NCBI GenBank assembly: GCA_963666275.2
Contig: CAXXOA010000003.1
Coordinates: 160,001 to 224,000, forward strand
Direction of reading: 5' to 3'
DNA length: 64,000 nucleotides
Source of the DNA: Oceanispirochaeta sp.
Lineage (GTDB): Bacteria; Spirochaetota; Spirochaetia; DSM-2461
Shown here: one piece after another, positions 27,772 through 46,868 of the stretch
How the letters are laid out: each line of letters opens with the position of its first letter
How positions within the stretch are numbered: position 1 is the stretch's first letter
The notes under the pieces: generated by a model
Told to the model about the DNA's origin: nothing
Databases searched by the model: none
The model's input: the letters and a program-made list of their open reading frames with translations, nothing else
Translations under genes and position numbers: made by a program

Positions 27772-27872
27772 AACCGAAAGCCGTTTCGGCTGGAGGTTGT
27801 TATTCAAGCGGCATGGCCGCAACCTTATCGAACACAGATCGAAGCAGCTTGCTGCGTAGAACTTTATTCGGG
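27772..27872 (+). repeat. 101-nt structured indel in intron 1 bounded by 9-bp direct repeats
   Basis: TTATTCGGG at 27763 and 27864; absent from intron 2; contains three hairpins. Confidence 0.75.
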
Positions 27873-28203: not shown

Positions 28204-29526
28204 ATGGAGAAACCAGCCTTGAACGAATCTATGATGGATTTGATTCTGTCGCAAGATAACATGCGTGATGCCTGGAAACGGGTCAAACGCAACGGTGGAA
28301 GTCCGGGGATTGATGATATATCAATCTCTCAATTTCCTGATTACCTTAAAAATCGGTGGCCAAGAATCAAACGAGCTTTGCTCAATGGGTACTATGTACC
28401 TTCTCCGGTGCTGAGGGTGGAAATCCCGAAGAAATCCGGAGGCTGGTCGCAAACAAGTTTGCTGCTCGCCCATGCAACCGGGGGAAAACGGATGCTGGGA
28501 ATCCCGACAGTTCTAGACAGGGTTATCCAGCAGGCTATTTCACAGGTTCTGAATCCCATATTTGATCCGGATTTCTCGGAGCATAGCTATGGATTCAGAC
28601 CGGGAAGATCGGCTCACGGAGCAGTGAAACAGGTAAATCAACATGTCAAATCCGGGTATAGATACGCCGTGGATCTGGACTTGGAAAAGTTCTTTGATAC
28701 AGTTAATCATGATATCCTGATGCATTTTGTGGCTGTAAAAGTCTGGGACAAATCTGTCCTCAGACTCATCGGCCGTTACCTGAGAGCCGGTATTCAGTTG
28801 GACAATGGAAAAGTGATTCCTACAGACATCGGCACACCCCAAGGCGGGCCCTTATCACCTCTGCTTTCCAATATCCTCCTTGATCGGTTGGATATGGAAC
28901 TGGAGAGAAGAAATGTGAGGTTCGCACGGTATGCAGATGACACTATCCTTTTAACGAAGAGATTGTGTGATGCTAGGAAGATCCTACAGGAAGTTTCAAT
29001 ATTTCTGGTAAGGAAATTGAAATTGGTAGTGAATCAGGAGAAAACGAAAGTTGCAAAGATAAGGGAGTGCAGTTTCCTGGGATTCACATTCAAGGGTAAG
29101 AAGATTCGCTGGACAGAGTCGTCCTTTGAGGATTTTCGGTATCATCTGAAATATCTGACAAGGCGTTCCTGGGGTGTTTCCATGGAATACAGAATCGGGA
29201 AACTCAATGAGTATATCCGGGGCTGGATGAACTACTATGGGATCTCCCAATATTACAGCCCTATACAGAATCTTGATGACTGGCTCCGTAGGAGGATTCG
29301 CATGTGCTACTGGAAACAGTGGCGATATCCCAGAACGAAAGTCAGGAAACTGATGGAACTGGGAATTCCGAAAGATTTTGCCATTATCACCGGTGCCAGT
29401 AGTAAATCCTATTGGCATCTCTCCAAGTCTTACGCTACCAATGCAGCTATGTCCAATAAATGGCTGGAAGAGCAGGGATTGGTCAATATCAAATATCTGT
29501 GGTGTAAAGCCCAGGGATATATCTGA
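28204..29526 (+). CDS. ltrA: Group II intron reverse transcriptase/maturase (no endonuclease domain)
   Basis: R.LGIPTVLDR, SYGFRPGRS, DLEKFFD, GTPQGGPLSPLL, RYADD, FLGF, GWMNYY. Confidence 0.95.
   Translation: MEKPALNESMMDLILSQDNMRDAWKRVKRNGGSPGIDDISISQFPDYLKNRWPRIKRALLNGYYVPSPVLRVEIPKKSGGWSQTSLLLAHATGGKRMLGIPTVLDRVIQQAISQVLNPIFDPDFSEHSYGFRPGRSAHGAVKQVNQHVKSGYRYAVDLDLEKFFDTVNHDILMHFVAVKVWDKSVLRLIGRYLRAGIQLDNGKVIPTDIGTPQGGPLSPLLSNILLDRLDMELERRNVRFARYADDTILLTKRLCDARKILQEVSIFLVRKLKLVVNQEKTKVAKIRECSFLGFTFKGKKIRWTESSFEDFRYHLKYLTRRSWGVSMEYRIGKLNEYIRGWMNYYGISQYYSPIQNLDDWLRRRIRMCYWKQWRYPRTKVRKLMELGIPKDFAIITGASSKSYWHLSKSYATNAAMSNKWLEEQGLVNIKYLWCKAQGYI
28440..28481 (+). repeat. 42-nt in-frame mini-element in RT gene (also at 31622-31663)
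   Basis: CCGG-AGGCTGGTCGCAAACAAGTTTGCTGCTCGCCCATGCAA-CCGG; removal restores canonical PKKSGGKR. Confidence 0.75.
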
Positions 29527-29660
29527 TCAAATCAGGATTTCGTTTGCTCCATGGAGTGAACCGCCCCGTGCGGACCCGCATGCGGGGTGGTGTGGGGGCT
29601 GGAGGTTAAAAGCCTCCGGCTACCCGATTTATCTAGCCCTCATATTTTCTGTTCAGTAAT

Positions 29661-30676: not shown

Positions 30677-30779
30677 GCTAGATAACGCCCGCATCAGCTG
30701 CAATTTTGTCCCGTAGGGTTGGCGACCTTATTGAGTATTCAAAAAGGGTGACAAAAAAATTGTCAGTTGCATGCGCTTG
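30677..30779 (-). repeat. attC site interrupted at its R'' core by intron 2
   Basis: GCTAGATAAC-gcccg-catcagctgcaatt...aattgtcagttgcatg-cgctt-G|TTATGTAT. Confidence 0.85.
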
Positions 30780-31385
30780 GTACGCCCGACATGGCAATAA
30801 ACTTATGAGGTGAAAGTCCTCTACAGCTACCCACGTATAGTAAACATGCTATACCAACTGTTAGCCGACGGCAAGGGCAATTCCGTGAGGAATTGTCTGG
30901 AGGAAGCCTGAGTGCAAAACCGGGAGCCCATGCACAAGAATGTGATAGAAGGCCCAGTTCCGGAGGCGAGTCAGCCAATGATGACGATGCCCCGTGGGTG
31001 AGGGATAGGGTAAATCACAGGGTTGTCCGGGGAATGTTTCTTGTCTTATTCGGGGAGATCTGTCTGCAAGGCGGTAACGTCGGTTTGACCGTGAGAATCC
31101 GGAGGATACCGGAGCAACAAGTCCAGGCCTATCAGGGGGTGACACTCTGATAAGGAGCCGTTTATACGGAACACAAAGAAGTCGTCACAGCGCTTCAAAC
31201 CGGATGATACAGCGTCAGCAGGAGTAATTCTACTGATAAGCGGACAGAAGTCAGCAGAAGGCATAGTAGCTAACGCCCGGAGTAATGTCCGGTTCATGGT
31301 GAAGGCCTGAACATTTCACAAGGAGGAGCCTTATGGTTCTCAAAGGAACAATTTCAGTTTATGCCGGAATCACTTTTGGCGGACC

Positions 31386-32732
31386 ATGGAGAAACCAGCC
31401 TTGAACGAATCTATGATGGATTTGATTTTATCCTCTGAGAATATGCACAAAGCCTGGAAACAGGTCAAACGCAATGGAGGTAGCCCTGGAATCGACGGTA
31501 TCACTGTCGAGAAGTTTCCAGGATATCTGAAAACCAGATGGCCTAGAATCAAACGAGCTTTGCTCAACGGGTACTATGTACCTTCTCCGGTGCTGAGGGT
31601 AGAAATCCCGAAGAAATCCGGAGGCTGGTCGCAAACAAGTTTGCTGCTCGCCCATGCAACCGGGGGAAAACGGATGCTGGGAATCCCGACAGTTCTAGAC
31701 AGGGTTATCCAGCAGGCTATTTCACAGGTTCTGAATCCCATATTTGATCCGGATTTCTCGGAGCATAGCTATGGATTCAGACCGGGAAGATCGGCTCACG
31801 GAGCAGTGAAACAGGTAAATCAACATGTCAAATCCGGGTATAGATACGCCGTGGATCTGGACTTGGAAAAGTTCTTTGATACAGTTAATCATGATATCCT
31901 GATGCATTTTGTGGCTGTAAAAGTCCGGGACAAATCTGTCCTCAGACTCATCGGCCGTTACCTGAGAGCCGGTATTCAGTTGGACAATGGAAAAGTGATT
32001 CCTACAGACATCGGCACACCCCAAGGCGGGCCCTTATCACCTCTGCTTTCCAATATCCTCCTTGATCGGTTGGATATGGAACTGGAGAGAAGAAATGTGA
32101 GGTTCGCACGGTATGCAGATGACACTATCCTTTTAACGAAGAGATTGTGTGATGCTAGGAAGATCCTACAGGAAGTTTCAATATTTCTGGTAAGGAAATT
32201 GAAATTGCTAGTGAATCAGGAGAAAACGAAAGTTGCAAAGATAAGGGAGTGCAGTTTCCTGGGATTCACATTCAAGGGTAAGAAGATTCGCTGGACAGAG
32301 TCGTCCTTTGAGGATTTTCGGTATCATCTGAAATATCTGACAAGGCGTTCCTGGGGTGTTTCCATGGAATACAGAATCGGGAAACTCAATGAGTATATCC
32401 GGGGCTGGATGAACTACTATGGGATCTCCCAATATTACAGCCCTATACAGAATCTTGATGACTGGCTCCGTAGGAGGATTCGCATGTGCTACTGGAAACA
32501 GTGGCGATATCCCAGAACGAAAGTCAGGAAACTGATGGAACTGGGAATTCCGAAAGATTTTGCCATTATCACCGGTGCCAGTAGTAAATCCTATTGGCAT
32601 CTCTCCAAGTCTTACGCTACCAATGCAGCTATGTCCAATAAATGGCTGGAAGAGCAGGGATTGGTCAATATCAAATATCTATGGTGTAAAGCCCAGGGAT
32701 ATATCGTAACCGTCAAAACTACAGGCCCTTGA
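31386..32732 (+). CDS. ltrA: Group II intron RT/maturase; last 8 aa derived from IS66 read-through
   Basis: Same motifs as intron 1 RT; IS inserted immediately before the native TGA. Confidence 0.93.
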   Translation: MEKPALNESMMDLILSSENMHKAWKQVKRNGGSPGIDGITVEKFPGYLKTRWPRIKRALLNGYYVPSPVLRVEIPKKSGGWSQTSLLLAHATGGKRMLGIPTVLDRVIQQAISQVLNPIFDPDFSEHSYGFRPGRSAHGAVKQVNQHVKSGYRYAVDLDLEKFFDTVNHDILMHFVAVKVRDKSVLRLIGRYLRAGIQLDNGKVIPTDIGTPQGGPLSPLLSNILLDRLDMELERRNVRFARYADDTILLTKRLCDARKILQEVSIFLVRKLKLLVNQEKTKVAKIRECSFLGFTFKGKKIRWTESSFEDFRYHLKYLTRRSWGVSMEYRIGKLNEYIRGWMNYYGISQYYSPIQNLDDWLRRRIRMCYWKQWRYPRTKVRKLMELGIPKDFAIITGASSKSYWHLSKSYATNAAMSNKWLEEQGLVNIKYLWCKAQGYIVTVKTTGP

Positions 32733-34260
32733 AAGCCCTTTTCTGAATAGCTTCCCGGTCACAGTTCCAGGGAAGCAGTTTTTCTTTGTCAAAATCATCT
32801 TCCATGACTGCGACCTGATCGAATATCCACCATAGATATCCATAGGGATTCAGATCATTCACTTTCGCCGTCTCAATCAAAGAGTAAAAGAGACTACTGG
32901 ATTTAGCACCCCTCGGAGATCCGGAGAACAGCCAGTTTTTCCGACCAACCACAAAAGGTTTAATCGCCCGTTCAGCGGCATTGTTATCCGGCGTCAGGTA
33001 GGGAGACTCAATAAAACGGACGATTTTCTCCCACTGGCCCAAGATATAGGCTATCGCTTTTCCCGTCGCCGTAGACGGCCTAACCTTTTCAGCCTTGTCA
33101 TCCAGCCAGGATTTGAGGTCATCCAGAAGCGGCTGAACCAGCTCTTTTCTCCTGTTCAAGAACTTCATATCATCCAAATGCTCATCCCGGAGATTACTTT
33201 CAATCCGGTAAATATCTCTGATTTTCTTTACAGCAATTTGAGCGCTTCCGGCTTTCTTTGAAGCCTTCGCGGCATCTACAAATTTCCGACGGGCATGTGC
33301 CAGACAACCGACATGAATGATATCTTCGTTGCCGTCCAGTGCCGTTTCATAAGCCTGATAGCCGTCAGTCTGGAGATATCCCGAATATCCCTCCAAAAAC
33401 GCCTTGGCATGCTGAGAACTTCTTGTTTCATGGTAGTCGTAGATCACAAGGGGTGAGTCCGGAGGCCCTCCCCGGGCAAGCCACATGTAGGATTTTGAGG
33501 TGTCCGGACGGTTTTCTTCTCCCAGAACCTGCACTGTGGTTTCATCCATCTGGATAACAGGGCCTTCTTTGATCTTCTTCCTAAACATATCCATAAGGAA
33601 TTGGAGCCTTTCTGCTGATTTATTTGTCCAATTGGACATGTCTTGGCGGCTGATATGAGCGCCGATACGCTCAAAGCGCTTCTCCTGCCTGTAAAACGGC
33701 AGATGATCACAGAACTTATTCACCAAGATAAAGGCTAAAAGCCCCGAAGTAACGATACTACCGGGAAGGATGGAAGGAGCCGCCGGGGCTACTCTGAAAA
33801 CCGGTTTGTCTTCATCACCGGAACCCTCACAGTTCCGGCAGGCATACTTGTAACGGATATGACGCTCCACGTATATCTGCTCGGGGATATGCTGAAGCCT
33901 TTCACTGACAATCTCATCAATCTTATCCAGTTGATGCCCGCAGCCGCAGATCTTTTCCTCTTCGGGAATGTCATGGATGATGTCCTCCCGGGGGATGTTG
34001 CTGTCCAAAGGCTTTCGTCCTGCCTTTGTTCGGCTATGTGCGGGAACTGTTATCTGATCATCTGCTGCGAATTCTTCCTCAGAAGGAGCCTCTTCTTCAA
34101 ACAGTTCCTTCTGGTTAGGATCGATTTTCTCGCTGGAACGTCCAAACTTGCGATGAAGAGCCAGGCGGAGTTCTTCTGTTAATTGCTCAATCTGACCAGA
34201 CATACTCTGGATGAGTTCAAGTGCTTTCTCTGGTGATTTTTGTATCTCCGCCAAGTCCAT
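32719..34260 (-). CDS. tnpC: IS66 transposase
   Basis: FGRSSEK, zinc finger, HLPFYRQ, MDET, GCLAHARRKF, DNNAAERAIK. Confidence 0.95.
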   Translation of the reverse strand: MDLAEIQKSPEKALELIQSMSGQIEQLTEELRLALHRKFGRSSEKIDPNQKELFEEEAPSEEEFAADDQITVPAHSRTKAGRKPLDSNIPREDIIHDIPEEEKICGCGHQLDKIDEIVSERLQHIPEQIYVERHIRYKYACRNCEGSGDEDKPVFRVAPAAPSILPGSIVTSGLLAFILVNKFCDHLPFYRQEKRFERIGAHISRQDMSNWTNKSAERLQFLMDMFRKKIKEGPVIQMDETTVQVLGEENRPDTSKSYMWLARGGPPDSPLVIYDYHETRSSQHAKAFLEGYSGYLQTDGYQAYETALDGNEDIIHVGCLAHARRKFVDAAKASKKAGSAQIAVKKIRDIYRIESNLRDEHLDDMKFLNRRKELVQPLLDDLKSWLDDKAEKVRPSTATGKAIAYILGQWEKIVRFIESPYLTPDNNAAERAIKPFVVGRKNWLFSGSPRGAKSSSLFYSLIETAKVNDLNPYGYLWWIFDQVAVMEDDFDKEKLLPWNCDREAIQKRAFKGL

Positions 34261-34301
34261 GAGAAAATTCTAACATGTTTGAATTCCATTGGGAAGATGG
34301 T

Positions 34302-34649
34302 TTAGACAATCTCTTCATAACTGAGAGTTTGATGAGTATGCCAGAAGTCAATACCTTCCAGGAGCATTTTCAACTGTTCCTGGGATATCTGCCTGGCTTG
34401 CTCTTCTGAATCCGGCCAGGGGTATTTTCCTTTTTCCAGGCGCTTCTGCCAGAGACAGAATCCGTTGCGATCCCAGTAAATGCACTTTATCAGCTTGCGG
34501 TCCCGGCTGCAAAAGAGGAAAAGGCAACCGGAACCAGGGTTAAGTTCCATTTCCTCCTGGGTGATAATGGATAAACCATTGACCTGTTTCCGCATATCGG
34601 TGATACCAGGTCTGACGTAGATTTGAATGCTGGTAAAATCCGGAATCAT
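34302..34649 (-). CDS. tnpB: IS66 accessory protein
   Basis: TDMRK..NGL, FLFC, YWD.NGF.LWQKRLE. Confidence 0.95.
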   Translation of the reverse strand: MIPDFTSIQIYVRPGITDMRKQVNGLSIITQEEMELNPGSGCLFLFCSRDRKLIKCIYWDRNGFCLWQKRLEKGKYPWPDSEEQARQISQEQLKMLLEGIDFWHTHQTLSYEEIV

Positions 34650-34984
34650 TTTAGGATCTCTTTTAAATCGGCGACAAGACGAATCAGCGAATGAGAATCG
34701 TAATCTGATGGAATATTGATCTTATGCCCGGAGGGGTATTCGATTGAAAATGGGCTTCCTGTAGACGCCTTCAAAACTACTGGAATCCTCACAAGCCCTT
34801 TTTCCTTCTCTACTGCTGATTCCTTGCGGATTTTCATTCTCCAATAGTCGAAGGTTGAAACGGGGATGCTATTCTTCAGGCAGAACTCTGTTCGGTTTAA
34901 ACTGCTCTTCTCCCATTCATTGATTTTTCGTTTCCAAATGTCTTTTTTTTCCATGCAGTAAATCTCCTTGTAGAAATTGTGCAT
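34646..34984 (-). CDS. tnpA: IS66 accessory HTH protein
   Basis: W..S.L...EFC....I..STF.YW. Confidence 0.85.
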   Translation of the reverse strand: MHNFYKEIYCMEKKDIWKRKINEWEKSSLNRTEFCLKNSIPVSTFDYWRMKIRKESAVEKEKGLVRIPVVLKASTGSPFSIEYPSGHKINIPSDYDSHSLIRLVADLKEILK

Positions 34985-35218
34985 GGAATTCAGATTACAT
35001 CGTAGGGCATAAGAAATTGACGGTTACGATATATCTGATCAAATCAGGATTTCGTTTGCTCCATGGAGTGAACCGCCCCGTGCGGACCCGCATGCGGGGT
35101 GGTGTGGGGGCTGGAGGTTAAAAGCCTCCGGCTACCCGATTTATGTATTTCTTTTTGGGAATCTCATTATTTGCATGTCTCACCCCTCATTTTTGGGTAA
35201 GATTTTGGAGTTATTTCA

Positions 35219-35830
35219 TCAGACTCCTTTGCTACTTAAGATAAATTCACAAATTTCATTATCATTCAGCATCTTATCTCGGTCGATTAATTTTATAGTT
35301 TCTGTTTTTGTAAAATAACTCTGTTTGATACTTTTCTGATTTTCGAAAACTTTAAGATACCCATTGTTAATGTCATCCCAATTCAATGTTTTTTCATAAA
35401 AAGAATTATCTTTACTAGCAAAAGGCCTACTTCTTGTCATTATGCAAATTGTCACATCATACTTGTCTTGCAGTTTTGAATAAAGCCTATGATGTATATC
35501 ATATATAAGCGATAACTCGAATTCATCTAAACCTGAAAGTTCCCCATAAATTAATGCGGAGATATAGCTACGATCCATTACTATATTAGTATCTGAATAA
35601 AGCATTGTTTCGTATAGATCAACGGTATGAGATATTGTGTGAAGAAGTTGCCGTTCAAATGGTGATATTGAAGTTTTTCCCTTTACAATACCACGTAGAA
35701 AACCTAGAGTATTACTTGCGCTTGGTTGCTGAAGAATAGAGGCATTTATCATTGTTGATAGTTGTTTAGAAATTGTAGATTTACCAAGATTATCGGCAGA
35801 TTCTAAAATCACTAGTTTATGTTTATCCAC
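35219..35830 (-). CDS. Thymidylate/deoxynucleoside-monophosphate kinase-like protein
   Basis: LVILESADNLGKST P-loop, ERQLL, VMDRSY.S.L.YG; GTG start 35830 overlapping the upstream stop. Confidence 0.8.
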   Translation of the reverse strand: MDKHKLVILESADNLGKSTISKQLSTMINASILQQPSASNTLGFLRGIVKGKTSISPFERQLLHTISHTVDLYETMLYSDTNIVMDRSYISALIYGELSGLDEFELSLIYDIHHRLYSKLQDKYDVTICIMTRSRPFASKDNSFYEKTLNWDDINNGYLKVFENQKSIKQSYFTKTETIKLIDRDKMLNDNEICEFILSSKGV

Positions 35831-37847
35831 CGTTCTTGCCCTCCACTCCTTTAATACCTTGTAGAATGAGTAAAATAATCTCATCAATAAACTTACTATT
35901 GAAAAGTATTCGGTTTTCCTCTTCTGAAAGTCCATTGTTTTCTGAAAGACCTGCGATTCCAATATTACTTATTTCTTGTACAATTGATTCATAGCTAATA
36001 TCTTTCTCTTCTGAATCTAACTCAAATAAGTCACTAATTTCTTTGTAGCCAGCGTTATGATGTAATTGCCACTCTTTTGTTAATTCTTCAGGAATAGTAC
36101 CACTTACTAATAATTCACATACCTTGGATGTAACACCTCCAAAACCTCCAAGCAAATACAATGGTTTTTTTTCTCTTAAAGAAATAATTATTTCCTCGAA
36201 AACACCAGGATACTTACCCTTGTAACCAGAAAAGCGACCTCCTGCAGAAATTCGATAATTGCACTGCCCAATCATTTCTTTACGCATCTTAGTTAAACAT
36301 AGACTCCATGCAAAGCAGTTTATCGCACCGACAGGACGTAGAAATATTTCTTTATCATGGTTTTTCTGGACTTTTTCTGATGGCTCAACCTTAATAATTT
36401 TTACCACCTTATTATTTTTTGCATTCCAATCCAAAGTAGGTTCATCAATATTTGTGTAAATAGGCCATGCTAAATAATTTTGAATTTTTGGCGTGGATGC
36501 CTGTAATCGATCTTGCACAACTTTTGCCTCTTCGCAAAGAAATTCTGAAAATCCTCCTGGACGAAGATCACCACCATAAACAACAGTAGCATCTCGAAAA
36601 AGTAAATGGCGTGCAATAGTTTGAGATAGAGAAATCAAATGTTTATTAGTTTGCCCAATATTTAGCAATTCCTCAGGTTCAGGATCTGATATAGATATTC
36701 CTATCGAAATTCCAGCAAAGGCTTTTAACTCCAATGTAAGGGGAGTACAAGCAATAATTCCTAATGGTTCAATACATTTATGCTCTATTCCATATACTGG
36801 AGGATCGGGATAAATGATTTTTGAGAACTTAGAATATATTGAGTCTCCGGAATTTGAAAGTAAATTGGTTATGTCAGACAATTCTGGAGGTCGGACCAAT
36901 AACATCGTTGATCCGTCATCATGTATACTTAATAAATCTTTGTAATAATTGATTTTTAGTGTTTCGAGTAGTGCGGTCTCAAGAATAGTATGTATATCAA
37001 GCTCAGAGATAGGTAAGCTAGAGTCTAAATGAACAGATGGTACATTGACAGAATGTGGAAATGCTCGATCTTCGTTTACTTTTAAATAGTTCACAACGAT
37101 TATTGGGAGACTATTCTCTTTGGCTATTAATATCTCTTTTTGACACCAATATCTCATAGAATAATTATCAGATTGAATTGAAATCAATGTGGAATCTTTT
37201 ACGGAATTTTCAATTTCATCTTCAAAATCATGAGAAATATGGATATCATATGCATCGTAAAAACGATGCATTAACGTATTATCAATAAATGATTTTAGTG
37301 ATTTAGCCGTTTCAACGGCCCAATCATCGTATTTCGTATGACTTAAAAATAACTTTATAGCACTATCATTACCTGGAATGTTTCCACCGTTAGAAAAAGC
37401 AAATCGATAGATTTCGTGAGTTGCTGAAATGAAAAACTGTTGGGTAATATATTGTTTGTCAAAGTCATAAAGCCTTATAAAATTTAACTTTTCATATTTC
37501 TTATTCAACCCAAATCCGAATTCTGAGTTAATAGCAATTGGAATAACTTGTTGGTCATCAACGGAAAGAAATGTGTCATAATAAGCTCTCCAATCAACAT
37601 TCCCAGTCACATACTTGTTGGAGAAACAAAAAATTATAGTTTTTTTTGCTTTTGAATCAATTCTTTTGGGTATAGCATTGTCATTCGAAGTTCGAAAGAA
37701 TACAGGAAGATTCATACTTCTAGAAAATGGTCTTGAAATATCTTTTTGAAATCTGTCAAAACAATACTCTACTAAAGGCTTTACAATAGCTTCATCAGCT
37801 GAATGCCAAACAAAATAGATTGCAAGTGGCTGCCTAAAAATTTGCAT
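35823..37847 (-). CDS. TIR-SLOG fusion protein (N-terminal TIR-like region, central TIR, C-terminal SLOG)
   Basis: KLFLSHTK.D...RYWCQKEI (TIR with catalytic Glu); VYGGDLRPGGF, LTKMRKEM, AGGR..GY.GKYPGVFEE, PLYLLGGFGG (SLOG). Confidence 0.82.
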   Translation of the reverse strand: MQIFRQPLAIYFVWHSADEAIVKPLVEYCFDRFQKDISRPFSRSMNLPVFFRTSNDNAIPKRIDSKAKKTIIFCFSNKYVTGNVDWRAYYDTFLSVDDQQVIPIAINSEFGFGLNKKYEKLNFIRLYDFDKQYITQQFFISATHEIYRFAFSNGGNIPGNDSAIKLFLSHTKYDDWAVETAKSLKSFIDNTLMHRFYDAYDIHISHDFEDEIENSVKDSTLISIQSDNYSMRYWCQKEILIAKENSLPIIVVNYLKVNEDRAFPHSVNVPSVHLDSSLPISELDIHTILETALLETLKINYYKDLLSIHDDGSTMLLVRPPELSDITNLLSNSGDSIYSKFSKIIYPDPPVYGIEHKCIEPLGIIACTPLTLELKAFAGISIGISISDPEPEELLNIGQTNKHLISLSQTIARHLLFRDATVVYGGDLRPGGFSEFLCEEAKVVQDRLQASTPKIQNYLAWPIYTNIDEPTLDWNAKNNKVVKIIKVEPSEKVQKNHDKEIFLRPVGAINCFAWSLCLTKMRKEMIGQCNYRISAGGRFSGYKGKYPGVFEEIIISLREKKPLYLLGGFGGVTSKVCELLVSGTIPEELTKEWQLHHNAGYKEISDLFELDSEEKDISYESIVQEISNIGIAGLSENNGLSEEENRILFNSKFIDEIILLILQGIKGVEGKNGG

Positions 37848-38435
37848 TTAATAACTCCACTTTGTTTGAGACTCTGATCGATTATTAGCAAATGACGGAT
37901 AACTGTTATCTGGAATATCAATTTTTCGTCTATTAAAAGCATCATCTATCCAATTTTGCACTATATATGGATTAATATCCCAATTATATATTTTTGCGTA
38001 GCCGCACTTTATATTATCATATAAGCGAGGTGGAATAGTGAAGGGGTTATATTGACCACCATTCTCACAACTTTTGTTTTCCCATGAATACTCACAATTA
38101 TAGGATGGTAAGAGTATTCCTATTAACCCTGTACGACTATTATACTGGGTTTTCCTGATACTAGAGGAAATTTCCCAGTCTACATGTTTTCTTTTCCACG
38201 TATCTTTACCAATCAAGACAATAGCAACTGTAGCGTCTTTTATAAATTTATCGCGTATTTGCTGACGTATAGTGTCGGTTTGCAATAAAGGGTTAATATC
38301 TCCTTCTTCAACTGATTTTGATATAAATCCATCAAATGAATTCGTGAATTTTTGAATAAATTGCTTTTTATAAGATTCATCATTTTTATGATGATAACTT
38401 ATGAATACTTTGTGTTTTTTTATCATTACATCCAC
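37848..38435 (-). CDS. ThsB-like TIR domain protein
   Basis: HKVFISYHH.ND, D.IRQ.IRD, VLIG..TW.RKHVDWEI.SS, PPRL.DN. Confidence 0.88.
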   Translation of the reverse strand: MDVMIKKHKVFISYHHKNDESYKKQFIQKFTNSFDGFISKSVEEGDINPLLQTDTIRQQIRDKFIKDATVAIVLIGKDTWKRKHVDWEISSSIRKTQYNSRTGLIGILLPSYNCEYSWENKSCENGGQYNPFTIPPRLYDNIKCGYAKIYNWDINPYIVQNWIDDAFNRRKIDIPDNSYPSFANNRSESQTKWSY

Positions 38436-39062
38436 CTATGATTGACCATCATATCTAATAAATTTCTCTTCTTGAAACATGGAAGGGAATCCAATTAGCC
38501 CATTATTATAGTTCTGTTGAATATATTCTAAAATTTGCAATGCGATCTTTTCATCCACATATCTGTGTCCTGGACCTCTTTTGCAAAGTTTTGTTGAAAT
38601 TTTTAATGGTATTTCAAACGCATCTTTCCCAAAGTAATAGAAATGACTTGAGATTAGTACCATGTCAGTAGTTGAAGTGTCTCGTTTCAAATTATGCTGA
38701 TTTATTTCGCCATTTTCGAGACTATGATGAGAATTATCTTGATGCCAATCACCATCATTTTTTTGGTGATATATATTGTCTCCATACATTTTCTTCAGAC
38801 TGCCATTCATCACCGGTTTTTTGTATTGAAAATCTGGATTTTTGTAGTATTCATTAAATGTCATTTTGGCCGTTACTTGCATAGTATAAATCAACCTAGG
38901 CGATTGTTGGTGTATGATGGATGATGTGCCAAATATCCAGTCGCCTATTTTTGCACTCTTTCTAATACTCGGCTTACAAGTTGCTAAAGTGCAATGTTTT
39001 CCAAATGGATTGGGTGCAAAACCAAAATCTCGAGGTATAACATATGAATAATACATAGCCAT
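38436..39062 (-). CDS. Nucleotide modification associated domain 2 (Nmad2)-like protein
   Basis: YSYV..RD.GFAPNPF...CTLATCKP.IR..A..GDWI.G, GDNIY, VLIS..FYYFG. Confidence 0.75.
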   Translation of the reverse strand: MAMYYSYVIPRDFGFAPNPFGKHCTLATCKPSIRKSAKIGDWIFGTSSIIHQQSPRLIYTMQVTAKMTFNEYYKNPDFQYKKPVMNGSLKKMYGDNIYHQKNDGDWHQDNSHHSLENGEINQHNLKRDTSTTDMVLISSHFYYFGKDAFEIPLKISTKLCKRGPGHRYVDEKIALQILEYIQQNYNNGLIGFPSMFQEEKFIRYDGQS

Positions 39063-39532
39063 TAACAATTGCTCCTGCCAATCCCATATCTACTTTGCCA
39101 AGGGCCATTCCCTTCAGAATTATCAAAGTCATTGCAAATTCCGTTTATTGCATCAATAATTTTTCCTGAATTCCACCCTACTAAAGCATCTCCAAATTTC
39201 TGGAAAGATTCTGGGACATCGGAATCCTTTGCTCCTTGCATAAAAACTCCTACAATAGGCTTTCCTTGTTTTGCTGCCTGCTCAATTTCCCAATTAACCC
39301 ATTCTCTAGTATGCGTTTGCGGACCGATCAAGACAACTGTTGTTCCCGCCCAACTTATTCCATCTCTCAATAATCCTTTAATGTATTCAGGGTTTTTTGC
39401 ATCATTAGGCTTTGTGCTATCAATTGAACTATTCCTCAGAGTATAACCTTTATCGCCGAGCATCTTCTTTAAAGCTTGAACGCTTTCATCATCCTTTCCA
39501 TAATGGCTGATAAACACATTTTTATTCTTCAT
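39062..39532 (-). CDS. ThsB-like (MTH538-type) TIR domain protein
   Basis: NVFISH..KD, ISWAGTTVVLIG..TH.REWVNWEIE.A...GK.IVGV. Confidence 0.88.
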   Translation of the reverse strand: MKNKNVFISHYGKDDESVQALKKMLGDKGYTLRNSSIDSTKPNDAKNPEYIKGLLRDGISWAGTTVVLIGPQTHTREWVNWEIEQAAKQGKPIVGVFMQGAKDSDVPESFQKFGDALVGWNSGKIIDAINGICNDFDNSEGNGPWQSRYGIGRSNC

Positions 39533-40152
39533 CAATATCCTCCTTTCAAGAATAAAGAATTTAATGATGGATTGTGAAACTTTATACCATTTTGCTTATG
39601 CGTTTTTGAATACAATGCAAGAGCCCAATCATGAAGGAAATCATTTTCAGATTCAAAAAATTCTTCAGATTCTCGCATCCTAATAGATTTTTCCCATTCT
39701 TCAAGTTTTTTTAATTGTTGATCAAAAGATGTTAGCGACTCAAATTTACTTTTGTACACATATGATTCATTTGAGCATGAAACCACTTTGCTTAAAGATA
39801 CTATCTTTTCTCTAAATTCTTCATAATAATGAAGATTATTTGTGATATGGTAATAAGAGCCAATTTCATAACCCAAAATTCCAGCAAAATATTCTAGCAT
39901 GAACATGTTATTAAACATATTAATACCAGTTGCACCCCAAAGAAAATCATTAGATCTCATATGAACATAAAGATTTAGCTTTCCTTGAACATCTCGAATA
40001 AACTGGATAGATCTAGTGCATGGGAAATCTTTTGTCTCCTTGATTATACCATTATTAAAACAATCTTTGACTGGATCACCTATATCAATTATTGCCTGTC
40101 TTGTGAACGCATCACGTTTAAAAGACTCAATTACATAACTAAACTGTAAGCG

Positions 40153-41724
40153 TCAAATAAACACAGGCCCTTTATCAGCCGTAATGTTATCTTTTAAATT
40201 CCATGGTAATAATTCTTCCCATTCTTGTTCATTATTGATGAACGGAGCTTTAGAGAAAACATAATGCAGATAATCAAAGGGATTCAAATTATTTTGTTTT
40301 GCAGTCTCAATCAGAGAATACATCCCGCAGGAACTGTCTGCCCCTTTGGGATTCCCGGAAAATAGCCAGTTTTTCCTCCCCAGAACAAAAGGACGAATAG
40401 CATTTTCACTGCCATTATTATCCGGAGTCAGATAAGGACTTTCCAGATATCGGATCAAATAATCCCATTGATTCAATGCATAATGAACAGCCTTACCTAA
40501 AGCACTTTCAGGTAAAACATTTTCAGCCCTTTTATCCAACCATTGTTTAAATTTTTCAAGAATGGGTTCGGCCTTGCTTTTCCGTTGTTCCTGGAACTCT
40601 TCAGGAGATAATTTCTTACTCCTTAGATCATTTTCCAAGGCATAGAGCTTCTTGATATGCTTGATTCCTTCCAGAGCACTTTTAGATTTTTTACTGGCTT
40701 TATCAGCCTCAAAGAACTTCCTTCTGGCATGTGCAAAGCAGCCTACCAGATGTATATCGGGATTGCCTTCTACCGCGGTTTTGTATCCTTGATATCCATC
40801 GGTTTGCAGATACCCTTTAAAACTAGTGAGAAAATTCTTTGCATATTCCGATGCCCGTGTTGGATGGTACTCATAATAAACAGCTTGTTGTCCCGGAGGA
40901 CCGCCTCTGGACAGCCACATATAGGATTTCTGTTTGTTATCCCGACCTGGTTCATTCAGAACCTGTACGGTTGTTTCATCCATTTGGATCACCGGACCGG
41001 ATTTTATGTGGGTTTTCAGCAGTTCAAAGAGAGGGAGAAGAGCTTCATAAGCCTTTTTCTGCCAATTACTCATATTCTGACGGCTGATTCGGGCTCCCAT
41101 ACGCTCAAACCGCTTTTCCTGTCGGTAAAAAGGAAGATGGTCCACGTACTTGTTTACCATCAGAAATGCCAACAGACCGGGAGTGACAATCCCTTTGGGG
41201 ATGATGGAAGGCTCCGGAGGGGCAATCTTTACAGCAGGAACATCTTCATCGGCGGTTCCTTCGCAATTACCACAGGCATATTTTAACCGGACAATCCGTT
41301 CTACCCAGATACGGGGAGGGATCACATGCAGTTTCTCAGAGATTTCTTCTCCGATTTTTTTCAGTTCTGTTCCGCAGGCACAGTTTTTTTCATCTTCAGG
41401 AATATCAATAATCCGTTCTTTGCGGGGAAGGTTCTCATCCAGAGGCTTTCTGCCTGTTTTCTTACGCTTGTAAGAATCTATTTGCTGTTCTTCCGAACAG
41501 TCTTCCTCAGGAGTCTGTGGTTCATCAGAATCAAATAATTCAATCTGATCAGGGATATTTTCTGCTCTTCGACCGAATTGACGATGCAATGCCAAGGCCA
41601 ACTTCTCTTCAAGAAGCTGATATTTCTTTTCCCAGTTCTGATTCTGGGCTTCTGATTCAGCAAGTTGCTTTTTCAGAGATAAAAATTCTTTTTGTGCTTC
41701 CAACGGAAGAGAGGAAATATCCAT
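40153..41724 (-). CDS. tnpC: IS66 transposase
   Basis: HLPFYRQ, MDET, GCFAHARRKF, DNNGSENAIR. Confidence 0.95.
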   Translation of the reverse strand: MDISSLPLEAQKEFLSLKKQLAESEAQNQNWEKKYQLLEEKLALALHRQFGRRAENIPDQIELFDSDEPQTPEEDCSEEQQIDSYKRKKTGRKPLDENLPRKERIIDIPEDEKNCACGTELKKIGEEISEKLHVIPPRIWVERIVRLKYACGNCEGTADEDVPAVKIAPPEPSIIPKGIVTPGLLAFLMVNKYVDHLPFYRQEKRFERMGARISRQNMSNWQKKAYEALLPLFELLKTHIKSGPVIQMDETTVQVLNEPGRDNKQKSYMWLSRGGPPGQQAVYYEYHPTRASEYAKNFLTSFKGYLQTDGYQGYKTAVEGNPDIHLVGCFAHARRKFFEADKASKKSKSALEGIKHIKKLYALENDLRSKKLSPEEFQEQRKSKAEPILEKFKQWLDKRAENVLPESALGKAVHYALNQWDYLIRYLESPYLTPDNNGSENAIRPFVLGRKNWLFSGNPKGADSSCGMYSLIETAKQNNLNPFDYLHYVFSKAPFINNEQEWEELLPWNLKDNITADKGPVFI

Positions 41725-41765
41725 AAGAGAATTTTAACAAAGACTGGAATTTGAGTAAATTCCTT

Positions 41766-42113
41766 TCAGGCAATTTCTGAATATTTCAATGTTTCGTGGG
41801 CTTTCCAGAAGTCTATACCCTTCAGAAGCATAGAGAGTTCTTCAAAGCTGATGGCTTTAGCAGCTTCTTCCGTATCTGGCCAGGGGAAGCGGTGCTTCTC
41901 CAGACGCTTCTGCCAGAGGCAGAAGCCTGTCTGATCCCAGTAAAGGGCTTTCAGAATCCGTCTCTGTTTATTACAGAACATAAAAAGAGAGCCGCAAAAA
42001 GGATCAAGAGACATTTCATCCTGAACTTCTACCGCCAAACCATTAATAGCTTTCCGCATATCGGTAACACCGGGTCGGATAAATATCTTGATTTGAGAGA
42101 AATCCTTAATCAT
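41766..42113 (-). CDS. tnpB: IS66 accessory protein
   Basis: TDMRKAINGL, LYWDQTGFCLWQKRLE. Confidence 0.95.
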   Translation of the reverse strand: MIKDFSQIKIFIRPGVTDMRKAINGLAVEVQDEMSLDPFCGSLFMFCNKQRRILKALYWDQTGFCLWQKRLEKHRFPWPDTEEAAKAISFEELSMLLKGIDFWKAHETLKYSEIA

Positions 42114-42408
42114 TGCACTGTACCAGGGTCTGAAGCAGTTTTTTCAATGTGATTGTATCAAAGTTCCGATCCAGTTTTATCCGGTAGGCATTCCATTGTA
42201 ACTCAATGGATGAGCCTTTGACTGTTTCCTTGGGCAATTTAACAGGAACTTCAACCAAGGATGGAGTTTTACGGTCATACCGCTTTTGCCATCCGTGGAA
42301 AGTCGTTGTTTTCAGTTTTTTATCCCGGCAGAACTGACTTACAGATTTTCCGGACTGTTTCCACTCTGCCAAAAGAGCGTAGCGCTGATCCATTGTGTAT
42401 TGTTTCAT
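42106..42408 (-). CDS. tnpA: IS66 accessory HTH protein
   Basis: WKQSGKSVSQFCR....TTFHGW. Confidence 0.88.
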   Translation of the reverse strand: MKQYTMDQRYALLAEWKQSGKSVSQFCRDKKLKTTTFHGWQKRYDRKTPSLVEVPVKLPKETVKGSSIELQWNAYRIKLDRNFDTITLKKLLQTLVQCND

Positions 42409-42880
42409 AGTAATTCTCCTGATGGAGATTGTACCGGGATGACTTGGAGATTTTTAGATGCGGTTTATTTGACGCTTACACTAAACTGATCGATTATATC
42501 CTGAGCACTATTATTTTGAGTATAACCAATCTGATAATCTGTATTTTCACCATTAAATTTTCGAAAACGTGGACCATATCCTGCTCTCATCCAGATACCA
42601 TCATCTGAAAACTGTTTTAAATTATTGCAATAGTAAGAGCTCATTTCAATGTCATTTCTACCAGCAGCTAGCCATAGAGACTCTGCAAATGGTAGATATT
42701 TATTCCATTCTCTTTCGGGTACAGTAATGATTCTTGCACAAGGATTTGATATTTGTACAATGATAGGTTCAGGTAATTCGTAACAAACTTTCCCACGAGT
42801 CGCTCGCTTTACACCTTCTTTCAGAAGAACTGCTGACATTTTTACAAGAAACTCATTTAAACTATCGTATTTAAATTTTG

Positions 42881-43861
42881 TTACATCCATTCGTTCACCT
42901 GGGGATAGTTAAGATTCCATTTTGGTGGAAAAAATAAATCTATCTTTGTTTGATTTATTTTAAATTTCTGTTTAATTCTTTTATTACCTACAGATAATTC
43001 TGGTAATTTTACTCGAAGGAATTTATCTGTTTCACAAAAACAATTTTGAAGATCAATGAGAGTAGGTTCTCTTCCAAATAAATTATTAAAATAATAGCCA
43101 TACTTTTCTCTATATTTTTCAATATTATCAGCTGTGTAACGAATTGCATCCTCGTAACTATAACCATCAAGATCAGAAAAGCACTTCTTTATACCACGGA
43201 TTGCACCAATTCCAGCTTTTACAAATGAATTCTCATCAAAATCAAATACATCAGAATAATTGAGGTCAATTGCGTATTGGTATGCTAAAAATGGACCTAT
43301 AAATGAACACTTAATAAGTATTTCGTACAGCTCTTTTAATGTTTTACACTTTAGCATCTTGTTAATTACTGGTGTATCAATAATTTCTGTTTTAAGCATT
43401 TGAAGCCATTTCTCATGCTTATAAAAATACCCTTTAGTATAGTTTCGGTGTGTACCTGTCATCAAATATGCTGCACTGAATATTGGACGATTCTTAATCC
43501 TTTCACTCAGGATATTCGATATTTCAGTAATATTGAAATTCTGAGTTGTGATAAATCCTAAATTATGCTCAATAAATTCCCAAGTATCGATTCTGTTGAA
43601 AATTTTAAAAAGAAGAATACGTAGAATTGTATCTTGAGCAGAAAAGTTACCCTTAGGAGAATAAATTACTTGGCGAACAAGATATTGACTAACCCGATCG
43701 CAAACACGATATACATTTGTAAATTTATACTCTGATAAAATGGGATCTGTAGTCAGATTGTTAAATTGATTGCAGGTTTCATTGTATCTATGCCAGAATA
43801 TATTCATTCGTTCTTGCATGAAATAAAAATAGTATTGAAATGCTTCATCACGAATCTTCAT
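42881..43861 (-). CDS. 5-hmdU DNA kinase-like / aGPT-Pplase1-family DNA base hypermodification protein
   Basis: ERMNIFW.R, T.DPIL..YKFTNVYR..DRVSQY, LFKIFN, IGPFLAYQY.IDLNYS, G.GA.RG, D.QNCFCE.DK; ATG 43861 after AGGA. Confidence 0.78.
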   Translation of the reverse strand: MKIRDEAFQYYFYFMQERMNIFWHRYNETCNQFNNLTTDPILSEYKFTNVYRVCDRVSQYLVRQVIYSPKGNFSAQDTILRILLFKIFNRIDTWEFIEHNLGFITTQNFNITEISNILSERIKNRPIFSAAYLMTGTHRNYTKGYFYKHEKWLQMLKTEIIDTPVINKMLKCKTLKELYEILIKCSFIGPFLAYQYAIDLNYSDVFDFDENSFVKAGIGAIRGIKKCFSDLDGYSYEDAIRYTADNIEKYREKYGYYFNNLFGREPTLIDLQNCFCETDKFLRVKLPELSVGNKRIKQKFKINQTKIDLFFPPKWNLNYPQVNEWM

Positions 43862-43934
43862 TGTCTTTCCTAAAATACTTTTGTATTTGTAACCTGATGT
43901 TTTAACTTTTCTCAATCTTTACGATATCAAATAT

Positions 43935-44112
43935 ATACATAACTATCTGATCACCTGCGGCCCGGCCTGGCCGAAGGACAGGTATTGGCGTTCTTCTTGC
44001 CAACATGGTAAAACATCTTTACCATATTGAGAAGCGATTATTTACTATTGAGTGGGAATATCAGCAAGAAGTATGACAATAGGGGTGACTGGTGCATCAG
44101 CATGTTATGTGA
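43935..44112 (-). repeat. attC site (intact, long)
   Basis: Top strand AAC-atgct-gatGcaccagTc ... gcaggtgatc-agata-GTT. Confidence 0.8.
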
Positions 44113-44196
44113 GCTTCCTTGGAGCAATTTTGCCCTAGATTCATATTTAATATTAATATTTACATTGTTTTCTATTGATCAACAGAGGACTGATTT

Positions 44197-44487
44197 ATGA
44201 AGAATAAGATAAAGATCTTCTTTTTAAAAATATTTCTTTACATGATCGGCATTTATGATTTCATGATGCTTCTATATGCGCTAGCAGTTATATTTCTAGG
44301 TGGGAATGGTATTACAGGGCTAAACAACATGCTCATAAAAACAGGGGGCAGTTATCGAGGTGTTGACCATTCTGTTGGTGCTGTAGTCATTGTTACTTTA
44401 ATAGTTCAAATTATGCTTATCAAAATAATTATTAGTAAAATAAAGGAATTAGAAGTTGATGTTAAAAAGGATATTTCTGATAACTAG
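44197..44487 (+). CDS. Cassette 6 small membrane protein (inverted relative to array)
   Basis: 96 aa, two TM segments, GAGGA RBS. Confidence 0.6.
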   Translation: MKNKIKIFFLKIFLYMIGIYDFMMLLYALAVIFLGGNGITGLNNMLIKTGGSYRGVDHSVGAVVIVTLIVQIMLIKIIISKIKELEVDVKKDISDN

Positions 44488-44557
44488 GTTTCTGTCTATT
44501 CATGAATTCCATGATAAGCTTATGTTAACTTAATTTTGTCGGCTAAGGAGTTATTCA

Positions 44558-44836
44558 ATGGTAACTGAATATGACATATCTAACATTCTACCTAGACTCA
44601 TAGGATCACTTAAAGAGATTTATGATCAAGAAATTCAGAATGGAAACACTGTAGTTGAGATTGCTGGAGGATGGCCTATGAAAAGGGTAAATATCTGGTT
44701 TGCAAAACCAATATCCTCTAAATATAAAAAACAGTTTCCTGATCTTATATATAAGTATCTAGGAGATCCAAAAGGAGATCTGGAATACTATATGGATAAA
44801 TTGAACGAAGCATTCATCGCTGCCAAGTTCTCATAA
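44558..44836 (+). CDS. Cassette 6 hypothetical protein
   Basis: 92 aa, AAGGAG RBS. Confidence 0.65.
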   Translation: MVTEYDISNILPRLIGSLKEIYDQEIQNGNTVVEIAGGWPMKRVNIWFAKPISSKYKKQFPDLIYKYLGDPKGDLEYYMDKLNEAFIAAKFS

Positions 44837-44879
44837 TGTACGTTCTGTCAATTATTGGTTTATATTAAAGGAAAAAATA

Positions 44880-45098
44880 ATGACACTTTCGGAAAAATTA
44901 CAAATTGTATTCTTTTCACTATTGCTATTAAATTTTTTTGTTGTTTTTATTAAGCATTGGAAAAAATCAATAAATAATATTTATGACATCAGAAATCAGC
45001 AAATTAGGCCTATAAAAAGCAATATTAAAATGCCGTCATTGAAAATTACTGTAATCCTTTTAATCATAAATTTTATATTACTAGTTATCAGATTTTAA
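44880..45098 (+). CDS. Cassette 6 small membrane protein
   Basis: 72 aa, two hydrophobic segments, AAGGA RBS. Confidence 0.5.
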   Translation: MTLSEKLQIVFFSLLLLNFFVVFIKHWKKSINNIYDIRNQQIRPIKSNIKMPSLKITVILLIINFILLVIRF

Positions 45099-45214
45099 TT
45101 TAGGGGAAATACTTAACATTGTCCCCATAATCGGTTACCGACAATCACCTATTCTGTCACTTTAGAATTTTTAAATTAACAAATTTATACTGAAAACTAC
45201 AAAAATTTTGAGTC

Positions 45215-45272
45215 CACATAACATTACTTATTATCCTGTTCAGTATAATTATCCCGTCTATGCAGTGATAAC
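45215..45272 (-). promoter_or_regulatory. attI-like primary recombination site region (continues 47603-47690 beyond IS66)
   Basis: Top strand ...GGATAATAAGTAAT-GTTATGTG core with no attC hairpin; repeated near-palindrome TTATCCTGnnCAGTATAAT at 45231 and 47659. Confidence 0.55.
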
Positions 45273-45285
45273 GTAACCGTCAAAA

Positions 45286-46827
45286 CTACAGGCCCTTGAA
45301 AGCCCTTTTCTGAATAGCTTCCCGGTCACAGTTCCAGGGAAGCAGTTTTTCTTTGTCAAAATCATCTTCCATGACTGCGACCTGATCGAATATCCACCAT
45401 AGATATCCATAGGGATTCAGATCATTCACTTTCGCCGTCTCAATCAAAGAGTAAAAGAGACTACTGGATTTAGCACCCCTCGGAGATCCGGAGAACAGCC
45501 AGTTTTTCCGACCAACCACAAAAGGTTTAATCGCCCGTTCAGCGGCATTGTTATCCGGCGTCAGGTAGGGAGACTCAATAAAACGGACGATTTTCTCCCA
45601 CTGGCCCAAGATATAGGCTATCGCTTTTCCCGTCGCCGTAGACGGCCTAACCTTTTCAGCCTTGTCATCCAGCCAGGATTTGAGGTCATCCAGAAGCGGC
45701 TGAACCAGCTCTTTTCTCCTGTTCAAGAACTTCATATCATCCAAATGCTCATCCCGGAGATTACTTTCAATCCGGTAAATATCTCTGATTTTCTTTACAG
45801 CAATTTGAGCGCTTCCGGCTTTCTTTGAAGCCTTCGCGGCATCTACAAATTTCCGACGGGCATGTGCCAGACAACCGACATGAATGATATCTTCGTTGCC
45901 GTCCAGTGCCGTTTCATAAGCCTGATAGCCGTCAGTCTGGAGATATCCCGAATATCCCTCCAAAAACGCCTTGGCATGCTGAGAACTTCTTGTTTCATGG
46001 TAGTCGTAGATCACAAGGGGTGAGTCCGGAGGCCCTCCCCGGGCAAGCCACATGTAGGATTTTGAGGTGTCCGGACGGTTTTCTTCTCCCAGAACCTGCA
46101 CTGTGGTTTCATCCATCTGGATAACAGGGCCTTCTTTGATCTTCTTCCTAAACATATCCATAAGGAATTGGAGCCTTTCTGCTGATTTATTTGTCCAATT
46201 GGACATGTCTTGGCGGCTGATATGAGCGCCGATACGCTCAAAGCGCTTCTCCTGCCTGTAAAACGGCAGATGATCACAGAACTTATTCACCAAGATAAAG
46301 GCTAAAAGCCCCGAAGTAACGATACTACCGGGAAGGATGGAAGGAGCCGCCGGGGCTACTCTGAAAACCGGTTTGTCTTCATCACCGGAACCCTCACAGT
46401 TCCGGCAGGCATACTTGTAACGGATATGACGCTCCACGTATATCTGCTCGGGGATATGCTGAAGCCTTTCACTGACAATCTCATCAATCTTATCCAGTTG
46501 ATGCCCGCAGCCGCAGATCTTTTCCTCTTCGGGAATGTCATGGATGATGTCCTCCCGGGGGATGTTGCTGTCCAAAGGCTTTCGTCCTGCCTTTGTTCGG
46601 CTATGTGCGGGAACTGTTATCTGATCATCTGCTGCGAATTCTTCCTCAGAAGGAGCCTCTTCTTCAAACAGTTCCTTCTGGTTAGGATCGATTTTCTCGC
46701 TGGAACGTCCAAACTTGCGATGAAGAGCCAGGCGGAGTTCTTCTGTTAATTGCTCAATCTGACCAGACATACTCTGGATGAGTTCAAGTGCTTTCTCTGG
46801 TGATTTTTGTATCTCCGCCAAGTCCAT
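45286..46827 (-). CDS. tnpC: IS66 transposase
   Basis: Identical protein to 32719-34260. Confidence 0.95.
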   Translation of the reverse strand: MDLAEIQKSPEKALELIQSMSGQIEQLTEELRLALHRKFGRSSEKIDPNQKELFEEEAPSEEEFAADDQITVPAHSRTKAGRKPLDSNIPREDIIHDIPEEEKICGCGHQLDKIDEIVSERLQHIPEQIYVERHIRYKYACRNCEGSGDEDKPVFRVAPAAPSILPGSIVTSGLLAFILVNKFCDHLPFYRQEKRFERIGAHISRQDMSNWTNKSAERLQFLMDMFRKKIKEGPVIQMDETTVQVLGEENRPDTSKSYMWLARGGPPDSPLVIYDYHETRSSQHAKAFLEGYSGYLQTDGYQAYETALDGNEDIIHVGCLAHARRKFVDAAKASKKAGSAQIAVKKIRDIYRIESNLRDEHLDDMKFLNRRKELVQPLLDDLKSWLDDKAEKVRPSTATGKAIAYILGQWEKIVRFIESPYLTPDNNAAERAIKPFVVGRKNWLFSGSPRGAKSSSLFYSLIETAKVNDLNPYGYLWWIFDQVAVMEDDFDKEKLLPWNCDREAIQKRAFKGL

Positions 46828-46868
46828 GAGAAAATTCTAACATGTTTGAATTCCATTGGGAAGATGGT

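Follow-up and report, generated by a model that had tools for sequence, protein, structure and literature searches.

Can an operon of seven genes be a single integron gene cassette? The question is raised by a 64,000-nt stretch of an Oceanispirochaeta sp. genome (G000:C3:160001-224000), called the window here, in which a cassette array spans 22.6-45.3 kb. One unit of the array holds a putative anti-phage operon with two ThsB-like TIR proteins and a TIR-SLOG fusion, and is interrupted by a group II intron (intron 2) and by insertion sequences (IS) of the IS66 family. With a probability of about 0.87, we take positions 30686-43942 to be a single genuine integron cassette, 6,554 bp long. The genes of the array are on the minus strand, hence the bottom strand of its attC sites is the plus strand.

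The ends are found where the initial annotation had placed them when it described the operon as one giant cassette. The exon junction G|TTATGTAT is at 30779/35141 and the complementary core ATACATAAC at 43935-43943. The interval measures 13,257 bp, and subtracting intron 2 (4,361 bp) and one IS66 copy with its duplication (IS66 B, 2,342 bp) reproduces the length of 6,554 bp that it had given. The other crossover, AA|C, is at 30685/30686, where a toxin-antitoxin cassette starts.

Both end sites are canonical attC hairpins. With the intron removed in silico, the cassette's own attC folds with an R box, an unpaired spacer, an L-box stem and bulged bases on the bottom strand, and the upstream attC folds canonically as well. 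A folding proxy, which spans 0-0.88 across 19 sites, is 0.76 for the own site without the intron and reaches 0.88 at the upstream site. The covariance model that scores them in Table 1 is a held-out one from 13 sites of other arrays, with the window sites and two paralogues of the upstream site left out. Copies of the upstream attC, 92% identical to it, lie at C2:1169803 and C3:277856 and lead into different cassettes of 2.9 and 2.1 kb, and the likeness among the three stops at the core.

The operon's 5′ core is complementary to its own R″ at 9/9 positions. Among 24 cassettes mapped by hand in four arrays of the genome, the own ends are complementary at 9/9 in 17 and at ≥8/9 in 22; the non-cognate pairings reach 9/9 in 12 and ≥8/9 in 68 of 552. 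Neither of the operon's two cores is matched at 9/9 by the cores of any of the 23 other cassettes. The next largest core of the 24 is 2,900 bp vs 6,460 bp for the operon.

No attC was found inside the operon. The initial annotation had seen neither an attC-like hairpin between the ends nor intergenic room for one, and four scans agree with it in detecting no interior site above noise. A geometry scan gives an interior best of -0.09 vs about -0.20 kcal/mol/nt or lower for four intact sites, which rank at the top. Arm profiles score at best 1.8 (bottom strand) and 7.3 (other strand) in the interior, while in leave-one-out calibration 17 of 19 true sites score 30-61 and two decayed or mis-registered ones 9 and 11. 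The covariance scan that it had proposed after in silico removal of the intron and IS recovers both end sites and none between them, the best interior match (11.0 bits, E 1.2) lying at 39146-39214 within a TIR reading frame. A stem test with a recall of 16/19 yields no candidate inside the operon.

Internal attC loss would have fused several ordinary cassettes into one, and fused cassettes have been described (PMC4670013). A decayed real site at 25400-25556 reaches only 12.3 bits, near the interior best of 11.0, so such sites are barely visible and the scans alone do not suffice to exclude a badly decayed one. However, the six gene junctions all overlap or abut, with gaps of -10, -4, -1, 0, 0 and -11 nt. 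Moreover, gene order and spacing are kept in a non-integron orthologue, locus L095, whose first six genes align at 84.8% across 5,724 columns, in which gaps reach 3 nt at most. Because of this abutment and collinearity, no internal site, decayed ones included, was lost. A fusion would also pair the start of the first cassette with the end of the last, for which 9/9 is expected in only about 2%. Hence we regard a fusion as highly improbable and keep to the single cassette.

Table 1. Features of the operon cassette and its surroundings (window positions unless a locus is named)
Feature	Position	Strand	Evidence or remark
Cassette's own attC, to the G of R″	30678..30779	+ (= bottom strand)	Held-out covariance model 58.4 bits, E 5e-14
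attC-targeting group II intron (intron 2), 4,361 bp	30780..35140	+	Rfam D1-D4 matches; TIGR04416 390 bits, cut-off 300
IS66 A, within the intron, where the reverse transcriptase (RT) open reading frame (ORF) ends	32706..35027	-	8-bp duplication GATATATC
Remainder of R″ (TTATGTAT on +) with the 78-nt 3′ trailer	35141..35218	-	Alignment, core mapping
Gene 7, deoxynucleoside monophosphate/thymidylate-kinase-like, ~204 aa from GTG	35219..35833	-	PF02223 E 3e-5, TIGR00041 E 3e-7
Gene 6, 674 aa, TIR + SLOG cluster-2	35823..37847	-	PF13676, PF18163
Gene 5, ThsB-like TIR	37848..38435	-	PF08937 E 2.5e-19
Gene 4, Nmad2	38436..39062	-	PF18753 E 1e-70
Gene 3, ThsB-like TIR	39062..39535	-	PF08937 E 3e-23; PADLOC ThsB E 4.5e-54
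Gene 2, thymidylate-synthase-fold pyrimidine hydroxymethylase-like, split by IS66 B	39532..42890	-	338 codons without the IS
IS66 B and one 8-bp duplication ACTAAACT	40146..42487	-	Element 40146-42479, 2,334 bp
Gene 1, HMUDK_hel, 326 aa	42881..43861	-	PF18723 E 4e-83; start by alignment to L095
81-nt 5′ leader from core G|TTATGTAT	43862..43942	-	Alignment to L095
Upstream attC, 166 nt AAC to GTT, crossover 43942/43943	43935..44112	+	63.2 bits, E 2e-15
attI-like array end	45205..45272	+	Aligns at a mean column identity of 73% with the intI-adjacent site and the ends of two other arrays
Five long cassettes of the genus	L180:14126-18571, L183:7748-11167, L186:5734-10265, L188:846-4245, L181:8742-11748		

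Long cassettes are not confined to the window. A genus-tuned attC model, R1, scores 150 candidates in each of the 10 other genomes of the genus and detects sites in all of them. We studied 18 regions from 7 genomes, picked for match clusters and wide gaps, with four fragmented genomes left out. Intervals were called clean if they hold no recognised mobile ORF and have ends of at least 8/9, and 63 of the 90 site-to-site intervals qualify. Their median is 1,204 bp; 14 exceed 2 kb, six 3 kb and two 4 kb. Thus the size of 0.5-1 kb that the initial annotation had given as normal for a cassette understates this genus.

Five single cassettes of 3.0-4.7 kb are multi-gene, with 9/9 ends and no internal match: a methyltransferase-HATPase-ORF set (4.67 kb), two Lamassu LmuABC sets (4.48 and 3.64 kb), three ORFs with DRT8 (3.43 kb) and Hachiman (3.04 kb). 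A 3.3-kb interval at L185 was removed from this list as it holds an IS-like element. All five carry the attC sub-family of the operon's own site, and cassettes of this sub-family are longer (Spearman 0.32; Mann-Whitney p 1.6e-5, 3.0e-5 and 3.4e-4 for three thresholds set arbitrarily), although this naive test overstates the effect because the genomes are kin and the regions were chosen. Tentatively, and with somewhat more doubt than belief, we suggest that the genus may use a cassette source that is recognisable by a single attC sub-family and packs entire multi-gene defence operons (3-6.5 kb, up to 7 genes) at transcript-like boundaries. In another genome (G308, L194:831-5259), intI is directly followed by a cassette with a 1,016-aa RT-nitrilase (UG5), a defence gene of about 3 kb.

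The operon could alternatively have been inserted by another route, a transposon or illegitimate recombination, into a small cassette that lost its gene, so that the cores are inherited and the 6.5-kb unit was never moved by IntI. The array is full of IS elements, homologous operons are found in defence islands beside phage-type integrases and IS ends, and no second copy of the cassette with both ends was found. However, only 81 nt precede the first gene and 78 nt follow the last, and no IS ends or gene remnant are seen in them. Both IS66 elements lie inside the unit and occur in multiple copies in the genome. Moreover, the five other long cassettes of the genus share the same tight build and the attC sub-family. 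We consider this other route quite unlikely and prefer that the operon moved in as a cassette.

The homologous operons tell where such an operon may come from. L095 has no match with the attC model and is flanked by an AAA-ATPase/HNH pair, phage-type integrases and another TIR gene, as in a defence island. Its likeness to the cassette starts 10 nt before the first ATG, and the cassette genes are not shorter than their L095 counterparts. The L095 kinase gene breaks off within a few codons, where a sequence resembling the window's IS66 end follows, so the 3′ boundary is not comparable with the cassette's. In Vibrio nigripulchritudo (L059), the gene order is the same including the kinase, and the second TIR is lacking.

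We collected 160 loci with TIR-SLOG homologues, the best 80 of 308 and the best 80 of more than 527. In 35 of them, many redundant (14 are similar metagenome loci, L121-L135), TIR-SLOG is accompanied by HMUDK, the first TIR and Nmad2; five of the 35 have a kinase match too. A taxon-free form of the stem test, with the same recall, finds one weak attC-like candidate on a single side in 4 of the 35. Model R1, with little power for distant taxa, gives one match on the 160 loci, at L040. This lone genus-type attC (L040:11393-11485, 31.6 bits) follows a separate 382-aa TIR gene and does not bound the operon; its context is a TIR-rich island of Chlorobiaceae. Loci L170-L172 were likewise rejected as integron copies: an IntI-like gene is about 8 kb off, the TIR genes lie among restriction-modification-like ORFs and no attC array is seen.

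Other searches returned little. TIR-SLOG was found neither by a single-protein search of the genome contig collection nor, besides the source genome, in 300 genomes of the phylum, and viral contigs gave no match. Three further homologous records, P0002-P0004, are 87, 85 and 67% identical and stand on contigs of 8.4, 7.5 and 6.4 kb. The HMUDK search gave one locus, L198. In sequencing run X4, a 1,325-bp contig of 98.5% identity covers 35128-36438 and so reaches the intron's last 13 nt, vs 31 letters in the bridging rule; it is only a hint that the same 3′ end occurs in another sample. The operon is covered in that run with little or nothing of the neighbouring cassettes, where holes in low-depth contigs prove nothing. 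Runs X7 and X8 look like one data set. The comparison covered four of the 10 listed runs, and no RNA run is on that list.

Several results weigh against the single mobile cassette. Stems of attC type on both sides are found in none of the 35 homologous loci by the taxon-free stem test (the flank is under 500 bp on one side in 8), and to that extent the homologous operons have boundaries unrelated to these cores, which the initial annotation had named as a finding that would refute it. It had also suggested looking for the same cassette ends in other arrays, and neither the genome contig collection nor the homologue loci hold a second copy with both ends; the exact 22-nt 5′ end has no match in the former. 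In 37 genomes of the family, Nmad2 is absent and TIR-SLOG occurs once (G332, at a locus without attC). About 2% of non-cognate end pairs reach 9/9 by chance. The inserted intron separates R″ from the hairpin and leaves the R box without a partner in the fold. For one pair of Vibrio cholerae repeats (VCR), excision falls from 1.17e-3 to 5.25e-5 at +3 kb, the longest addition tested (PMC5371416), and no excision of the present cassette has been observed. The likeness of the cargo to a known defence system, DS-4, is at the domain level, and its defence and signalling roles are predicted.

We read the non-cassette homologues as capture of an existing operon into a cassette and not as refutation. 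Their non-integron settings fit such a capture, while they count against the expectation of shared ends. An existing defence-island operon would have gained a single attC, placed 78 nt behind its last stop codon. The cassette would then have been recombined into the array at G|TT by an IntI acting in trans, passing through a circle and integrating as a unit.

So long an excision would be workable for well-folding sites on a probable lagging-strand template. A positive GC skew around the window suggests that this template is the bottom strand. In this orientation, well-folding sites were excised at every length tested, up to about 3 kb (PMC5371416). Movement as an excised circle is thus deduced from the sites and their setting. 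Later, the intron would have entered the cassette's attC and IS66 its second gene.

Intron 2 is inserted at G|TT of R″, and its RT ORF starts at 31386. The same ends are found again at many intron copies of the genome, with the same target junction there. Like the group IIC-attC introns (PMC3001079), it is inserted in the attC bottom strand, opposite to the cassette genes; unlike those described there, it carries an IS66, and its class may be IIC or IIB. Because the intron leaves the R box unpaired, excision is probably blocked at present. A contig of run X6 bridges the insertion site in gene 2 without IS66 B. The cassette as found is probably immobile and partly inactive.

The initial annotation had called the operon a single integrase-mobilisable defence unit. 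The marks of a single cassette and the domain match to a validated system favour this, but mobility applies only to an intron-free ancestor: today the intron separates R″ from its hairpin and the integrase gene is on another contig. A genome-wide profile search finds no intI beside the window's array end, so that intI, attI and array do not form a complete integron here. The single intI over the cut-off in the genome is at C1:1063760 (TIGR02249, 390 bits), intact with 0 stops. The operon is the second cassette counted from the attI-like end, directly beyond which lies an IS66 (45273-47594).

Homologous attI-like sites end four arrays of the genome (window 45205, C1:1063325, C2:1179965 and C3:279765), with one intI in all. 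Hence it looks like the dispersed arrays are served by one integrase. A fifth attC cluster lies at C1:1290000-1305000 on the opposite strand. The cassettes at window 44105-45221, C2:1169974 and C3:278030 each have ORFs opposite to the array and share one 166-nt attC type, common sequence past the core and identical 8/9 ends. Within the window, 24178-25349 is a two-gene cassette with 9/9 ends that matches the PADLOC candidate PDC-M04A/B (E 1e-86, 8e-38).

At the distal ends of arrays (window 22640-22668, C1:1032512, C1:1034514 and C2:1165104), only an intron 3′ end is fused to the R″ core, which suggests intron-linked deletions of the array tail. The introns at 27455-29628 and 30780-35140 differ by internal insertions of about 160 bp (27705-27864) and about 42 bp in the RT gene; these are common to other copies, suggesting small mobile repeats inside the intron. 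An IS3-family element with an apical loop-internal loop (ALIL) frameshift signal, at 26078-27382, lies in the stem of an attC that also holds intron 1. An element with a 512-aa DDE transposase (PF13751, DUF772) is repeatedly found at attC cores, leaving the end AGTCTCAAC, and reads as an attC-targeting IS (L181:11932-13470, L183:5962-7500, L192:3088-4626, L196:5018-6556 and L197:7987-9525).

No sigma-70 consensus promoter was found in the 81-nt leader of the seven cargo genes. The frame of gene 2 is open once IS66 B is removed and is identical to the intact L095 protein at 289 of 338 positions. The best solved relative of that protein is cytidine monophosphate 5-hydroxymethylase (E 5e-19), with thymidylate synthases at E 2e-5 or weaker. 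In gene 6, a predicted sensor-effector, the TIR glutamate E238 is invariant across 39 aligned homologues, and no solved structure matched its SLOG2 part. Both family scores of gene 7 are below the curated cut-offs. HMUDK_hel presumably belongs to the aGPT-Pplase/amino acid:DNA transferase group. The phage aGPT-Pplase proteins are amino acid:DNA transferases acting on hydroxymethyluracil DNA (PMC8989533).

DS-4 (working id NTTI; DefensePredictor, PMC13092281) is a five-domain unit validated as anti-phage in E. coli. It and the operon share a thymidylate-synthase-fold (TS-fold) protein, a nucleotide kinase, HMUDK_hel, a ThsB-like TIR and Nmad2; the HMUDK_hel, Nmad2, TIR and TS-fold genes stand together in one operon here. 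The gene order differs, the operon adds a second TIR and the TIR-SLOG2 protein, and its TS-fold gene is broken, unlike that of DS-4. The operon's kinase is thymidylate-kinase-like and perhaps not orthologous to the DS-4 kinase, which its authors matched to 1DEK (PMC13092281). Thus, judged by domain models alone, the cargo is DS-4-like plus a TIR and a TIR-SLOG protein.

The operon also resembles Thoeris types I-III (PMC13276650) in having ThsB-like TIRs beside a SLOG-containing protein. The ThsB TIR of types I and II is represented by two PF08937 matches and a PADLOC ThsB match, whereas no ThsA effector (SIR2-SLOG or TM-Macro) is matched in Pfam, PADLOC or NCBIfam. For type III, the ThcB4 model reaches 25.7 bits vs a cut-off of 220, over the TIR stretch only. 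It differs from Thoeris also in that SLOG cluster 2 is fused to TIR and four nucleotide-modification genes are extra. For lack of ThsA and of a sufficient ThcB4 score, the operon falls outside Thoeris, though it may work in a Thoeris-like way.

A working scheme can be drawn from these domains, to which we give an even chance. During infection by a phage, the DS-4-like arm would make or read a hydroxymethyl-pyrimidine mark carried by nucleotides or DNA, and the small TIRs would produce an ADP-ribose-type signal. The SLOG domain would bind that signal and switch on the fused TIR as a NAD-depleting abortive effector. This switch would be analogous to that of Thoeris with another effector domain.

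The cargo of a real cassette might instead be a nucleotide- or DNA-modification cluster with no anti-phage role. No PADLOC or NCBIfam model names the whole system, and the role is predicted from the domains. We consider this unlikely, since the DS-4 unit protects E. coli (PMC13092281), two TIRs are ThsB-like and L095 adjoins an AAA-ATPase/HNH pair and another TIR gene. A defence operon remains our preferred identity of the cargo.

How does such a cassette stand against the published limits? The largest known cassettes are given as about 2 kb, and the 4-kb clustering distance was set at twice that (PMC4889954). The operon resembles the cassettes of attC-site clusters without an integron-integrase (CALIN; PMC4889954) in being attC-bounded, with a G|TT crossover, complementary cores, top-strand genes and intI elsewhere. 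It differs by its 6.55 kb and seven genes, exceeding the 4-kb default even without the insertions, and its array keeps an attI-like end.

Cassettes are known to carry defence genes, ThsB-like TIRs included (10.1101/2024.07.02.601686, 10.1101/2024.07.02.601719). Those anti-phage cassettes are streamlined, with one or two genes (10.1101/2024.07.02.601719), and integron-borne systems are stated never to exceed two components (10.1101/2024.07.02.601686), whereas the operon has seven genes, unshortened against its non-integron orthologue. The small size has been explained by poor recombination of long cassettes, measured only to about 3 kb (PMC5371416). In the open texts consulted we met with no natural cassette as large or as rich in genes, and a larger one may have been published elsewhere. 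The operon cassette is about three times the quoted size ceiling, with seven genes vs two, and is the extreme of a genus-wide trend.

Surveys using the 4-kb distance would split arrays holding such cassettes. If the genus does package whole operons, the rule of small defence cassettes of at most two genes would partly reflect sampling and that detection distance. A natural 6.55-kb cassette between two well-folding sites is a ready substrate for finding the real length limit. Its cargo ties DS-4 to a recurrent TIR-SLOG module (the 35 of 160 loci, with their redundancy), to which none of the model libraries searched gives a name.

For the origin of cassettes, ends 81 nt before and 78 nt after an operon known outside integrons give a test. 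The attC sub-family common to the longest cassettes is a further handle. If the packaging holds true, the pair that it forms with the 85%-identical orthologue outside integrons would reveal how a cassette comes to be cut out of its donor operon.

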